Shown here: positions 15,962 through 20,994 of the stretch, one piece after another
How positions within the stretch are numbered: the stretch's first letter is position 1
Layout of the letters: each line of letters begins with the position of its first letter
NCBI GenBank assembly: GCA_002431975.1
Contig: DJFA01000104.1
Span: 5,666 to 51,666, forward strand
Direction: 5' to 3'
Length of the DNA stretch: 46,001 nt
Source: Ruminococcus sp. UBA5884
GTDB taxonomy: Bacteria; Bacillota; Clostridia; Oscillospirales; Ruminococcaceae
Notes under the pieces: generated by a model
The model's input: only the letters and a program-made list of their open reading frames with translations
Told to the model about the DNA's origin: nothing
Databases searched by the model: none
Position numbers and translations under genes: made by a program

Positions 15962-16201
15962 TTAAATTCTTGATTTAATGATTTTCACCATTTCGCCTAC
16001 GTTTTTCATTGTGGAAACTTCGCCCATCTTGAATTTCATGCCAAATTCCTTTTCAACGGCTTCGATGAGATTGATATGTTCAAGGCTGTCCCATTCATCA
16101 ATATCATCAGCAGTTGTATCTTCAAAGAGGTCAACTTCATCGAGGTCGAAAACGTCCATAAAAATTTCTTCAAGTTTTGCGTAAATCTGCTGTTCGTTCA
16201 T
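15962..16201 (-). CDS. Acyl/peptidyl carrier protein (DltC-like position in an MBOAT operon)
   Basis: 79 aa with phosphopantetheine-site context DIDEWDSLEHINLIEAVEKEFG. AAAGGAG RBS. Confidence 0.85.
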   Translation of the reverse strand: MNEQQIYAKLEEIFMDVFDLDEVDLFEDTTADDIDEWDSLEHINLIEAVEKEFGMKFKMGEVSTMKNVGEMVKIIKSRI

Positions 16202-16219
16202 AAATATTCTCCTTTTTGT

Positions 16220-18016
16220 TTATGTAAGATTGTTTTTGATGACTTTTATAACGTGACTGGCAGGTGTATAGTCAGCGGTATTGAGTTTCCATACGCTGTC
16301 GCCATTTTCCGCAGCATTGATTTTTTCAAATCCGAATGAAGCGAAAAGGTCTTTTACCATATTATTCTTTGCAGTTTTATAATAGTATCCGAAAATTTCA
16401 GAAATATTATTTTTTAAGCATTCCTTTACAAGTTCATCAAGCATTGCAAATTCCATGTCACGTTTTAAGACACGGCAGCTCATAAGCCATAAATCTATAT
16501 GGAGAGAGGAATTTTCCTTTTTGCCGATAACCACGGATACAACGCCGTTGTCGCCGAATTTGTCAGTAAGTTTTCCATATAATCTTATATAGTTGTCACT
16601 GTGAAAAACTTCTTCCATTTCAGCCTGAGTATATCTTTTTGTAGTCAGATTGAACTGATTGCTTTTATTTGTAAGCTGAACGATTCTCTGAAGGTAAATC
16701 GGGTCGAAATCGTCAATTACAGCGACCATTTCAAGGCTTTTCAGATAATCATTATAGTTTGAGAACTGTTTCTGCTGAACAGCTCTTTCAGCATTTTTCT
16801 TATACATTTCATTGCGTTTTATATCGTCTTCAGAGAATGAAGTGACTTCAAAATATCCGGCTTTGTCGATTATCTGGATATATGACTCAACATTCTTTAT
16901 ATCAGGAGCAAGAACTCCCGGAAGCTGTGATTTTACAATTTCTCTTTCAGCCGGATTGTCATCAATGAAAACAATGCTGTCAGTCAGGATATTTATATCA
17001 GAAGCAATTTCAGATATATTGCTGTCTTTAGTATTCCAGTTAGCTTTTATTGAGATAAAATCGTCAGGGGAAAGAATGCTGTCAGGGTGTTTAAGACCAA
17101 GAACAGCGTTTTCCTCATCATTTTTGGAGCATACGGAAAGTATCACGCCAAGATTTTTATGAGCCTTTATATATTTCTGAAATTCGCTGTAAGCCTGTGA
17201 CATTGAGGTTTCATTGCCGATTTCAATGCCTTCCTGACCGTCATCTCCGATAACTCCGCCCCAGAGAGTATTGTCGAGGTCGAGAGCAAAGGCTTTTTTA
17301 TTTTTTCCGAGGATTGATTTTATTATATTTGCAAGATTATATGAAAATTCAGGGATTGCACTGACACTCAACGCATATTTATACATATACCAGTAAAAAG
17401 GCTGTGACCATTTTTCAAGACCATATGAGGCTGAAAGATAGTTTATATCATGGATAAAGAAATTTTCATGAGTCTGTGCATATTCATAGAATTTCATGTT
17501 AAGTCTTGAAATAAAGTTTGATTTTCCATGGATATCGCTTGAATCCTTGTTGCCGAGAAGTCTGTAAAACGGCAGTTCCATATTATTCTGAATTATCGGG
17601 CAGTGGAATTTTTCAAAAAGATTATCCCACATTCTGCTGAAATGGCTGTACTGTCGTTCAAGAGCCTCATCAGTTTCAGCAGCAGATGCAGTCATACAGC
17701 CTTCATTAAATTCAGTTATATTTCTGTTGGTTGTGTGAATGAATATAAAATCGGGTTTAAATCCGTCAAGCTCCGGATTTCCGAACATAGCGTCCTGCCA
17801 GTACTGACCGAATTCAGACTGATAGAATGATGGTTCTATACCGTAATTGAGCAGAAAAAGCTCCAGCATTGAAATTATATCATTTGTAGTTGAACCGCCG
17901 AGAACAGCTATATTTTTTTTAATTCTCTGTGAACCGTCAGCGAGGAGCTGTTTTTTTATTGAACGGCGTTTTTTGAGTATATATTCGCTGTCAAAAGGGT
18001 AATCAAGTTCTTTCAT
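16220..18016 (-). CDS. FkbH-like HAD-superfamily IIIC protein (putative carrier-protein loader)
   Basis: 598 aa. HAD-IIIC motif I is FALDLDNTLWGGVIGDDG. An SCRV-type Cys-containing segment (LWLMSCRVLKRDME) is also present. Confidence 0.8.
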   Translation of the reverse strand: MKELDYPFDSEYILKKRRSIKKQLLADGSQRIKKNIAVLGGSTTNDIISMLELFLLNYGIEPSFYQSEFGQYWQDAMFGNPELDGFKPDFIFIHTTNRNITEFNEGCMTASAAETDEALERQYSHFSRMWDNLFEKFHCPIIQNNMELPFYRLLGNKDSSDIHGKSNFISRLNMKFYEYAQTHENFFIHDINYLSASYGLEKWSQPFYWYMYKYALSVSAIPEFSYNLANIIKSILGKNKKAFALDLDNTLWGGVIGDDGQEGIEIGNETSMSQAYSEFQKYIKAHKNLGVILSVCSKNDEENAVLGLKHPDSILSPDDFISIKANWNTKDSNISEIASDINILTDSIVFIDDNPAEREIVKSQLPGVLAPDIKNVESYIQIIDKAGYFEVTSFSEDDIKRNEMYKKNAERAVQQKQFSNYNDYLKSLEMVAVIDDFDPIYLQRIVQLTNKSNQFNLTTKRYTQAEMEEVFHSDNYIRLYGKLTDKFGDNGVVSVVIGKKENSSLHIDLWLMSCRVLKRDMEFAMLDELVKECLKNNISEIFGYYYKTAKNNMVKDLFASFGFEKINAAENGDSVWKLNTADYTPASHVIKVIKNNLT

Positions 18017-19572: not shown

Positions 19573-19590
19573 TTTAAAAGGACTCCTTTT

Positions 19591-20994
19591 TTAGAAACGG
19601 AAATACAAAAACGGGTTGTTTGTTGCGTCTACAAGCATAATGCTGCTTACTGCAAGAAGAAGAACATTTGCAGCAGTCTGCAATGATTTCATCAATATGA
19701 AAGAAGATTCTGACTTGTCCATAAGTTTTTTAAGTGACTGTACAACAGGGAAGCAGGCTATAACAGCAATTATTATAAGGAAAATATTATTGAAGAATGA
19801 AACTTTGACAGCCTCATCAAAGAATACATTGCCGTTAAGACCGATAAGATTTTTAAGGAAGTTTATAAGTTTATTTCCGTCCTCAAAGTAGAAAATACCG
19901 AATCCGACTATTATAACAATTTTATTGTATATATGCATTATGACCTTAGGAATCTTTTTCATGCGTTTTTTGCCGACAAGCAGTTCAAGGAATATGAATA
20001 CTCCGAAATAAAGACCCCAGATTATATAGTTCCAGCTTGCACCATGCCATAAACCTGTTGAGAACCATACAAGGAACAAGTTGAGATATTTTCTGCGTTT
20101 GCCGAATATCGGGAGATAGAGCAGATAGTCACGGAAGAATGAACCGAGTGATATATGCCATCTCTGCCAGAATTCAGTGATATTTATGCATATGAAAGGA
20201 TAATTGAAGTTTTCATCAAAATGGAATCCGAATACACGTCCAAGACCTATAGCCATATCGGAATATCCGGAAAAATCGAAATAAACCTGCATTGCATAGA
20301 TTATAACAGCATACCATGTGCCGGCAACTGAAAGATTTTCAATATTCTTGCCGAAAAACGCATCAACTATTACGCTGAGATTATTTGCGATTATGACTTT
20401 TTTGGCAAGACCAACAGTAAGCCTTGAAAAGCCGTCACTGAGGTCTTTTGCAGTAGTCTGACGCTGGCTTATTTCCTGACCGATAACGGAATATCTTACG
20501 ATAGGGCCGGCTACAAGCTGAGGAAACATTGAAACATAAAGCAGGAATTTCCCGAAGCTTTTCTGGGTTTCAACCTTTTCCCAGTAGCAGTCTATTGTAT
20601 ATGAGATTGTCTGGAATGTATAGAAGCTTATTCCGATAGGCAGAGCAATTTCAGGGACGTGCAGATTGAGTGAAAGTAAAGCATTTATATTTTCAACAAT
20701 GAATCCGCTGTATTTGAAAAATCCGAGCAGACCGAGGTTTGTTACAAGTGAGCCGATTACAGCAAGCTTTGCTTTGAAAGTGCCTCTGTATTTGTCGATT
20801 ATTATGCCGTTGAGATAGTCAATCGAGGCACTGAATACCAGAAGAAATACCCATGTAGGTTCTCCCCATGCATAAAAGACCAATGAAAATGCGGTAAGTA
20901 TAAAGTTTCTGTATGAGATATTTTTTGTTGCAAAATACATTATAAGACATATCGGCAGAAACATATAAAGAAAAAACAGACTGGAGAAAACCAT
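19591..20994 (-). CDS. MBOAT-family membrane O-acyltransferase (DltB/AlgI-like)
   Basis: 467 aa, polytopic, with the conserved-His segment FWQRWHISLGSFFRDYLLY. Confidence 0.9.
   Translation of the reverse strand: MVFSSLFFLYMFLPICLIMYFATKNISYRNFILTAFSLVFYAWGEPTWVFLLVFSASIDYLNGIIIDKYRGTFKAKLAVIGSLVTNLGLLGFFKYSGFIVENINALLSLNLHVPEIALPIGISFYTFQTISYTIDCYWEKVETQKSFGKFLLYVSMFPQLVAGPIVRYSVIGQEISQRQTTAKDLSDGFSRLTVGLAKKVIIANNLSVIVDAFFGKNIENLSVAGTWYAVIIYAMQVYFDFSGYSDMAIGLGRVFGFHFDENFNYPFICINITEFWQRWHISLGSFFRDYLLYLPIFGKRRKYLNLFLVWFSTGLWHGASWNYIIWGLYFGVFIFLELLVGKKRMKKIPKVIMHIYNKIVIIVGFGIFYFEDGNKLINFLKNLIGLNGNVFFDEAVKVSFFNNIFLIIIAVIACFPVVQSLKKLMDKSESSFILMKSLQTAANVLLLAVSSIMLVDATNNPFLYFRF

Follow-up and report, generated by a model that had tools for sequence, protein, structure and literature searches.

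We analysed a 46,001-nucleotide stretch of the Ruminococcus sp. UBA5884 genome (contig DJFA01000104.1, positions 5,666 to 51,666; hereafter the window) and concentrated on an operon of four genes on its minus strand (15962-20994), which encodes an MBOAT acyltransferase, a membrane-anchored DHHW-family protein, an FkbH-like protein and a small acyl carrier protein (ACP). We propose, with a probability of roughly 0.6, that these proteins form a self-contained, carrier-protein-dependent MBOAT-SGNH module which O-acylates an envelope glycopolymer with glyceryl groups taken from 1,3-bisphosphoglycerate. The proposal builds on which genes are present, on catalytic motifs that are intact, on the folds of the domains and on a conserved linkage between the four families, all of which were observed directly. 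The chemical steps would follow by homology to the FkbH/ZmaN loaders, to PatA and DltB-DltX, and to PatB1.

The open reading frame (ORF) listing of the window contains four intact, co-oriented genes in the order MBOAT-DHHW-FkbH-ACP. These encode the PatA/AlgI-type MBOAT (467 residues, 19591..20994), the DHHW-family SGNH-like acyltransferase (461 residues, 18187..19572), the FkbH-like loader, with FkbH_N, HAD-IIIC phosphatase and predicted GNAT-like domains (598 residues, 16220..18016), and the dedicated ACP (79 residues, 15962..16201). The MBOAT/DHHW and FkbH/ACP gaps are both 18 nucleotides (nt), and the DHHW/FkbH gap is 170 nt. A preliminary description of this DNA had announced such a minus-strand operon, and its coordinates and the strings that it quoted (RWHISLGSFFRDY, DLDNTLWGG, MSCRV and DSL) were all found in the ORFs. 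Typing with hidden Markov models (HMMs) assigned all four families: MBOAT (PF03062, E = 9e-23), DHHW (PF14286), FkbH (TIGR01686) and PP-binding (PF00550). Since HMM scores this high were obtained on ORFs of 461-598 residues, the family assignments are not due to chance. The operon had also been described as having no adenylation enzyme, which agrees with our finding that none of the four genes encodes an AMP-binding protein. Within the window, AMP-binding domains occur only in the modules of an unrelated non-ribosomal peptide synthetase (NRPS) at 30388-37871, on the other strand.

The FkbH-like protein matched TIGR01686 across model positions 3-320 of 323 (268.5 bits, cut-off 146.65), the HAD-SF-IIIC model TIGR01681 (59.9 bits, cut-off 35.75) and FkbH_N (PF21211). 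Residues 21-397 matched the BF1531 structure in the Protein Data Bank (PDB 3slr, E = 4e-52). A Foldseek search with an AlphaFold model (pLDDT 72) returned 3slr for the N-terminal two thirds and the GNAT folds of RimI, Ard1 and SpeG for the last ~160 residues (TM-scores of 0.6-0.73). Thus, the C-terminal domain is predicted to adopt a GNAT-like fold. No transmembrane segments were found in the FkbH-like protein or the ACP.

Characterised FkbH enzymes load a glyceryl unit from 1,3-bisphosphoglycerate onto an ACP. We compared the FkbH-like protein with homologues collected by tblastn of plasmids. These comprise a protein from the zwittermicin cluster of Bacillus thuringiensis and two Streptomyces sets, one an ACP/acyl-CoA dehydrogenase/FkbH set of the methoxymalonyl type and the other a FabH-like/FkbH/ACP set of the tetronate type. 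The gene order around the B. thuringiensis homologue agrees with the published zma cluster, and we take this protein to occupy the ZmaN position. Identity to these characterised-type comparators is 25-28%. The alignment has invariant residues at D246, D248 and T250 (HAD motif I, DLDNT, 17267..17281), S297, K330, D352 and S513-C514-R515, with C514 (codon 16475..16477, in SCRV) the family's sole invariant cysteine. The preliminary description had staked its assignment on catalytic Asp and Cys residues, and these (D246, D248 and C514) are kept relative to ZmaN and the Streptomyces FkbH proteins. Among complete homologues from related loci, DxDxT is present in 77/77 and SCRV in 76/77. The FkbH/OzmB mechanism reportedly proceeds through an acyl-S-enzyme on a cysteine and, because C514 is invariant, we infer that Cys514 would be the acyl-S-enzyme site in the operon protein.

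The ACP scored 22.9 bits against PF00550, just above the gathering score of 20.8, with Ser39 in a WDSL motif (codon 16085-16087) as the predicted phosphopantetheine attachment site. It fell under the cut-offs of all NCBIfam models for housekeeping AcpP, and its best PDB match was the 'putative ACP' 2lml (7e-16), which is closer than housekeeping AcpP. DltC was absent from its phmmer matches in the PDB at E ≤ 1, where only ACPs were returned. We considered the Sinorhizobium meliloti ACP SMb20651 as a characterised orthologue and rejected it; the papers found concern a different ACP, which lies beside an acyl-CoA synthetase-like gene.

The MBOAT scored 143.1 bits against the DltB equivalog model TIGR04091, below its cut-off of 375. 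Its catalytic region aligns to the DltB structures 6bug and 8jem (RWH(280)ISL versus RWHMSL), which places the universally conserved catalytic histidine at His280 (codon 20155..20157). Beyond this region the protein has two extra C-terminal transmembrane segments (residues 400-418 and 437-455) and ends in FLYFRF (19594..19611). These last six residues fit the FxYxxF acyl-shuttle hexapeptide, here fused to the MBOAT's C-terminal end, with Tyr464 as the predicted acyl-Tyr site. Of 61 complete linked MBOATs, 60 end in the relaxed pattern [FL]xYxx[FI], and all but two in F[IL]YxxF proper, the two being SLYAQF and FIYSRI. In known MBOAT-SGNH systems, the MBOAT histidine moves the acyl group to the FxYxxF tyrosine, from which it passes to the SGNH catalytic serine and then to the polymer; the motif was defined, and the acyl-Tyr demonstrated, for PatA and DltX (PMC12148441). 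The donor in the Dlt pathway is D-alanyl-DltC and the shuttle is a separate microprotein, DltX, while PatA/PatB use acetyl-CoA and an MBOAT-fused shuttle, as do AlgI, WssH and PatA1 by inference (PMC12148441). MBOAT-SGNH pathways other than Dlt are stated to 'lack a similar carrier protein' (PMC12148441).

The DHHW protein matched PF14286 over the whole model (positions 1-385 of 385, 184.6 bits against a gathering score of 25, E = 4e-54) and, more weakly, ALGX (PF16822, 1e-8). Its PDB matches were 4nzk, EUBSIR_00411 from E. siraeum (E = 3e-75), Bacillus cereus PatB1 (4e-8) and, less strongly, AlgJ and AlgX. The protein consists of a single N-terminal transmembrane anchor (residues 18-36), a low-complexity linker and the catalytic domain, in which the active-site blocks DHHW (275-278), KDS with Ser397, and DIRY (417-420) are intact. 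These correspond to Block V, the nucleophile and Block II of PatB1, the only characterised DHHW enzyme, which O-acetylates secondary cell-wall polysaccharide (PMC9487903). Judged from these sequence features, the MBOAT-DHHW pair is architecturally closer to O-acetyltransferases of the PatA1/PatB1 type than to Dlt.

We explored the distribution of the system by a genome scan, in which relatives were found in at least 580 species-level genomes. We retained 80 loci, called their ORFs and searched them with the four window proteins, taking linkage counts on the 49 loci with at least 5 kb of flank on both sides. The ACP is adjacent to FkbH in 45/49 of these and the MBOAT lies within 8 kb of FkbH in 38/49; a DHHW protein is present in 17/49 and all four genes in 14/49. 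The preliminary description had staked its reading on synteny in other genomes, and the four genes do recur together there; the linkage persists under varying gene order and across several phyla. The closest homologues bear the annotation Ruminococcus sp. Among dominant gut Clostridia (Ruminococcus, Oscillospiraceae, Lachnospiraceae and Christensenellaceae) the system is common, and it is also found in Bacteroidota and S. meliloti.

Comparison of the loci reveals two arrangements. Type A consists of MBOAT, one to four DHHW genes, FkbH and ACP, and occurs among Oscillospiraceae and in Ruminococcus, one host being the cultured R. flavefaciens 007c. Type B consists of FkbH, ACP, an optional MaoC dehydratase or VOC gene, an optional SDR gene, MBOAT and a membrane-anchored protein of ~350 residues. 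It is found in Lachnospiraceae, Christensenellaceae, metagenome-assembled genomes of Bacilli, Eisenbergiella tayi and Odoribacter splanchnicus (locus L065). The ~350-residue partner (family f5) has no Pfam match and no significant PDB profile match; its invariant D...G.S and DxxH form an SGNH-like pattern, which suggests that it is an SGNH-like enzyme. Accessory genes of type B encode a MaoC-like dehydratase, an SDR, a VOC/glyoxalase protein, an aldo-keto reductase and a split transketolase (examples at L049:10021-15621, L056:6218-6949 and L071:2340-2729), and in S. meliloti, Paroceanicella and a C. perfringens plasmid the FkbH-ACP pair is likewise accompanied by a VOC gene. The recurrence of these accessory genes suggests either that the unit bound to the ACP undergoes tailoring or that alternative ones are produced.

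On the S. meliloti plasmid pSymB (CP140883.1, L082:3573-9452), the cluster comprises a VOC gene, an MBOAT ending in FLYQGF, a 409-residue SGNH-like protein, an ACP and a 628-residue FkbH-like protein. The 409-residue protein contains GGST...DPGH and is mis-annotated as a TonB-dependent receptor. FkbH-like relatives occur in 40 Sinorhizobium plasmid records, of which this is the single locus that we looked at.

Searches from the DHHW side gave seven relatives at 39-48% identity in the four-gene arrangement, with different flanks each time, and two MBOAT-DHHW-ACP triads (L094:4505-8099 and L095:4523-8370), in which the DHHW proteins have 612 and 691 residues. The triads have no FkbH-like gene within 6 kb, and their ACPs are ~60% identical to the window ACP. 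The ACP is present in all nine informative relatives (the seven four-gene loci and the two triads). A metagenome scan with the DHHW protein alone returned three loci only, its back-translated patterns being too specific. Since the flanking genes differ in every genome, the four genes appear to form an autonomous module. The persistence of the ACP in the triads, where no FkbH is adjacent, ties this carrier to the MBOAT-DHHW pair itself, and nothing in the loci hints that it works for an unrelated pathway.

These linkage data bear on whether the four genes are neighbours by coincidence, with the FkbH-like protein and ACP feeding secondary metabolism, such as the NRPS at 27.8-43.9 kb, and the MBOAT and DHHW proteins acting as an ordinary acetyl-CoA-dependent O-acetyltransferase pair. 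FkbH-ACP cassettes do serve polyketide synthase (PKS) and NRPS pathways, and the window holds an NRPS cluster with free-standing thioesterases. Acetyl-CoA, moreover, is the donor of PatA-type MBOATs (PMC12148441). However, the NRPS is encoded on the opposite strand, and thiC, an amidohydrolase, a Na/H exchanger, a sigma factor and an IseA-like gene stand between it and the operon. The four genes are tightly spaced (18-nt gaps, the 170-nt gap holding only a repetitive extragenic palindrome (REP)-like insert) with no internal terminator. The same four genes occur without any NRPS in at least seven other genomes with different flanks, and the FkbH/ACP/MBOAT linkage in 38/49 loci extends across phyla. 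We consider a coincidental neighbourhood very improbable, and a supply of the window NRPS by the FkbH-like protein and ACP was rejected on grounds of distance, strand and synteny elsewhere.

We propose that the joint module operates in the following manner. In the cytoplasm, the FkbH-like enzyme would take 1,3-bisphosphoglycerate and form an acyl-S-Cys514 intermediate in its GNAT-like domain, with no use of ATP. The HAD-IIIC domain (Asp246/Asp248) would remove the 3-phosphate, and the glyceryl group would pass to the phosphopantetheine arm on Ser39 of the ACP. Glyceryl-S-ACP would then dock at the cytoplasmic face of the MBOAT, where His280 would catalyse movement of the acyl group along the membrane tunnel onto Tyr464, within the FLYFRF that the MBOAT itself carries at the outer face. 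Ser397 of the DHHW protein, predicted to form a triad with Asp275 and His277 of the DHHW block and to use DIRY as the oxyanion block, would accept the acyl group. The DHHW protein would finally esterify a hydroxyl of a wall polysaccharide, a teichoic-acid-like polymer or peptidoglycan. Glycerate as the acyl group and the nature of the acceptor polymer are both expectations drawn from the relatives of these proteins.

Three considerations favour a glyceryl unit. All HAD phosphatase motifs are retained in the FkbH-like protein, which argues for a doubly phosphorylated substrate. The FkbH-DH-KR loading modules of trans-acyltransferase (trans-AT) polyketide synthases turn glyceryl into lactyl, and in type B loci genes for a hot-dog dehydratase and an SDR stand beside FkbH and ACP, as would suit a glyceryl starting unit. 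The three-carbon glyceryl is also of the same size as the D-alanyl group handled by DltB.

The same machinery and topology could instead serve another acyl group, if the FkbH-like protein loads a different acyl phosphate or donor (for example acetyl phosphate), or if the unit is modified further, so that the short acyl placed on the polymer is acetyl, lactyl, glycolyl or some other. Characterised FkbH proteins are few, and the clade of the operon shares ~25-28% identity with them. The MaoC, SDR, VOC, split transketolase and aldo-keto reductase genes of type B indicate that what the ACP carries clearly varies within the family, the triads L094 and L095 hold the ACP with no adjacent FkbH, and the characterised DHHW and PatA systems transfer acetyl (PMC9487903, PMC12148441). 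However, the invariance of the four HAD phosphatase motifs is hard to explain unless the substrate has a second phosphate, as 1,3-bisphosphoglycerate does. The operon in the window has no tailoring enzyme and, for acetyl, acetyl-CoA could be used directly, as PatA does. We thus regard an acyl group other than glycerate as unlikely in the window operon.

A further alternative concerns the acceptor. The acyl-ACP, MBOAT and DHHW proteins may cooperate as proposed and yet act on something other than a wall polysaccharide, such as a membrane glycolipid, a lipoteichoic-acid anchor, an exopolysaccharide that is secreted or a protein of the surface. Housekeeping genes, and no glycan genes, surround the module, the MBOAT superfamily also acylates lipids and proteins, and the two to four DHHW paralogues of some loci suggest several acceptors. 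On the other hand, the closest other uses of such pairs are in glycan O-acetylation (CcsH/CcsI, alginate and peptidoglycan), and type B loci are embedded in clusters of glycan type, in which a GDSL-family gene (f13) is confirmed by Pfam and glycosyltransferase-like and large multi-transmembrane polymerase-like genes were recognised by reading of the translations rather than by Pfam. PatB1, the sole characterised DHHW enzyme, acylates a secondary cell-wall polysaccharide (PMC9487903). An acceptor other than a wall polysaccharide appears improbable to us, and more so than a change of acyl group.

Other points weigh against glyceryl transfer to a wall glycopolymer. The chemistry assigned to every member of the system is homology-based, and membership of the FkbH family does not prove 1,3-bisphosphoglycerate to be the substrate in the clade of this operon. 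We know of no glycerate ester on any Firmicute wall polymer. The acceptor cannot be read from the context because the module is not beside glycan-synthesis genes. In 11/49 full-flank loci FkbH occurs without an MBOAT within 8 kb, so the FkbH-ACP pair is a portable one, and PKS and NRPS pathways use it too; conversely, the ACP stands without an adjacent FkbH in L094 and L095, and the window itself has an NRPS cluster 6.8 kb from the operon. The MBOAT could also take acyl-CoA, since PatA-type MBOATs with fused shuttles use acetyl-CoA (PMC12148441).

Comparison with the Dlt pathway indicates which parts of the machinery are shared. Both have a cytoplasmic loader for a small phosphopantetheinyl carrier protein of their own, and the acyl unit has three carbons (glyceryl as proposed here, D-alanyl in Dlt). 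Also as in Dlt, the MBOAT would carry the acyl group across the membrane to the FxYxxF tyrosine, and an extracytoplasmic, membrane-anchored SGNH-type protein would complete the transfer (PMC12148441). The two differ in the loader, which is an ATP-dependent adenylase in Dlt and an FkbH-type HAD/GNAT protein, expected to use an acyl phosphate, in the operon. The shuttle peptide is on the MBOAT itself, with no DltX microprotein, and the MBOAT is not DltB; likewise, the partner is a DHHW protein and not DltD, and the carrier does not resemble DltC. Being a hydroxy acid in the proposed scheme, the acyl group would add no positive charge. We found no small DltX-like ORF ending in FxYxxF within the operon or near it. 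For the 170-nt gap and the upstream region, a separate microprotein of the DltX type was considered and rejected, as the only ORFs there are REP-derived and have no FxYxxF. Membership of Dlt was ruled out on four counts, the operon having no match to DltA, the DltB equivalog, DltX/DltD or DltC. The preliminary description had called the system Dlt-like, and this holds for the logic of MBOAT, carrier and extracytoplasmic partner but for none of those four Dlt features. Similarly, of its 'DltB/AlgI-like' label for the MBOAT we retain the PatA/AlgI type and drop the DltB equivalog (143 versus 375 bits). The protein that it placed 'in the DltD/AlgX position' is of the DHHW family, with an ALGX match, and is not DltD.

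The operon shares the fused C-terminal FxYxxF on two extra transmembrane helices with PatA1/PatB1 (Bacillus cereus), PatA/PatB, AlgI/AlgJ/AlgX, WssH/WssI and the clostridial CcsH/CcsI. As in the PatA1/PatB1-type pairs, the genes are adjacent and the partner is of the DHHW/AlgX type with the same active-site blocks. Unlike PatA/PatB-type pairs, which use acetyl-CoA and no carrier (PMC12148441), the operon co-inherits a dedicated ACP and a loader. This loader resembles the glyceryl-ACP loaders FkbH, OzmB, ZmaN and Tmn16 in its full-length match to TIGR01686, its HAD motifs, its SCR cysteine and its adjacent stand-alone ACP, and it is a long form with an FkbH_N domain, like the tetronate-type protein of locus L084. 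In contrast to the PKS and tetronate FkbH pathways, there are no FkbI/J/K/G genes for oxidation and methylation, no FabH-like tetronate synthase and no PKS downstream. Here, an MBOAT would use the acyl-ACP, which sets the operon apart from the FkbH, OzmB, ZmaN and Tmn16 pathways.

One other glycan-modification context is known for this protein family. The flagellin locus of Campylobacter jejuni encodes an ACP, and its flagellin sugars carry glyceroyl-type acyl groups. An FkbH-domain gene, cj1302, also lies in this flagellin glycosylation locus and so resembles the operon in placing an FkbH-domain protein in a glycan-modification setting (PMC7099621). The locus differs from the operon in that the acyl group would be put onto a nucleotide sugar in the cytoplasm, with no MBOAT/SGNH membrane step. 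We found no publication linking FkbH and ACP to MBOAT/SGNH polymer acylation, in a search that left subscription journals largely outside, so prior art is possible.

The candidate promoter of the operon, TTGACC-18-TATAAT (21059..21088, minus strand), is a consensus match only; it is the best promoter-like match in 15300-21400 (11/12 positions to sigma-70) and lies ~65 nt upstream of the MBOAT ATG. Downstream of the ACP is a small gene, orf73 (15664..15885, minus strand), which encodes an acidic protein of 73 residues and has its own promoter-like TTGATT-17-TATAAT at 15944-15916. It has no Pfam or NCBIfam match, its conservation extends no further than the closest relatives (L001, L011 and L089), and orf73 is probably outside the core system. 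A hairpin with a T-run after orf73 (15617..15642, minus strand) is the only convincing minus-strand terminator and would close the transcription unit; the stretch from MBOAT to ACP has no comparable minus-strand terminator outside coding sequence. Nothing but two REP-like hairpins in inverted orientation (GTAGGGGCGAACTGTGTTCGCCC, 18057..18127), identified by a repeat search, occupies the DHHW-FkbH gap. This pair has no T-run after it on the minus strand and is an intergenic insertion that disrupts no gene. This palindromic hairpin, as GTAGGGGCGAACTGTGTTCGCCC or the variant GTAGGGGCGACCATTGGTCGCCC, has 13 matches in the window compared with 0 in 100 shuffles. The copies are intergenic and mostly form inverted pairs (6518, 11053/11101, 15482/15529, 18057/18105, 21169/21281, 25250/25297 and 27153).

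Elsewhere in the window, the plus-strand NRPS cluster (27772-43862) comprises a saccharopine-dehydrogenase-like gene, NRPS modules of the C-A-MT-T and docking-C-A-T types, an ABC ATPase with an FtsX permease, a 481-residue protein with an N-terminal carrier domain and four free-standing type II thioesterase genes, which is an unusual number. In other genomes it shows no linkage to the acylation operon. Between the two, at 21366-23765, thiC, recognised by reading its translation, follows an amidohydrolase gene (PF04909). No TPP (thiamine pyrophosphate) riboswitch was found at the Rfam gathering score anywhere in the window, and the Rfam scan of the whole window gave nothing else at the gathering threshold. 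A TerD-type stress-response cluster at 61-11001 (plus strand) encodes VWA, PP2C phosphatase, protein kinase, P-type cation ATPase, TerD-domain (6590-7171 and 7915-9162), DUF815 AAA ATPase and DUF6709 proteins. A membrane protein at 13211-14122 (plus strand) joins a zinc ribbon and DUF2628 to a prokaryotic RING finger (Prok-RING_1, E = 2e-25).

MBOAT-SGNH pairs are the general bacterial route for the acylation of peptidoglycan, teichoic acids, alginate, cellulose and secondary wall polysaccharides. Such envelope acylation controls resistance to lysozyme and antimicrobial peptides, autolysis, S-layer anchoring and immune recognition. We tentatively suggest, as a reading slightly less likely than not, that the operon represents a second widespread class of carrier-dependent MBOAT-SGNH systems besides Dlt, in which an ATP-independent FkbH loader draws on 1,3-bisphosphoglycerate to place glycerate esters on wall or surface glycopolymers, and whose MaoC, SDR and VOC variants may place a lactate-like or other short hydroxy acid. 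To our knowledge, glycerate-ester acylation has not been described for Gram-positive envelopes.

A model published in 2025 (JBC; PMC12148441) assigns a carrier protein and DltX to Dlt, and acyl-CoA with a fused shuttle to all other pairs. The operon joins a fused shuttle, a carrier protein and a non-adenylating loader, which indicates that this dichotomy is incomplete. The hypothesis is testable with four small proteins and in cultured hosts, namely Ruminococcus flavefaciens 007c, Eisenbergiella tayi DSM 26961 and the genetically tractable rhizobium S. meliloti. If the acyl group is glycerate, the MBOAT would be the first non-PKS consumer of glyceryl-ACP, and abundant gut commensals would carry a new envelope modification that ties the chemistry of their envelope to glycolytic flux.

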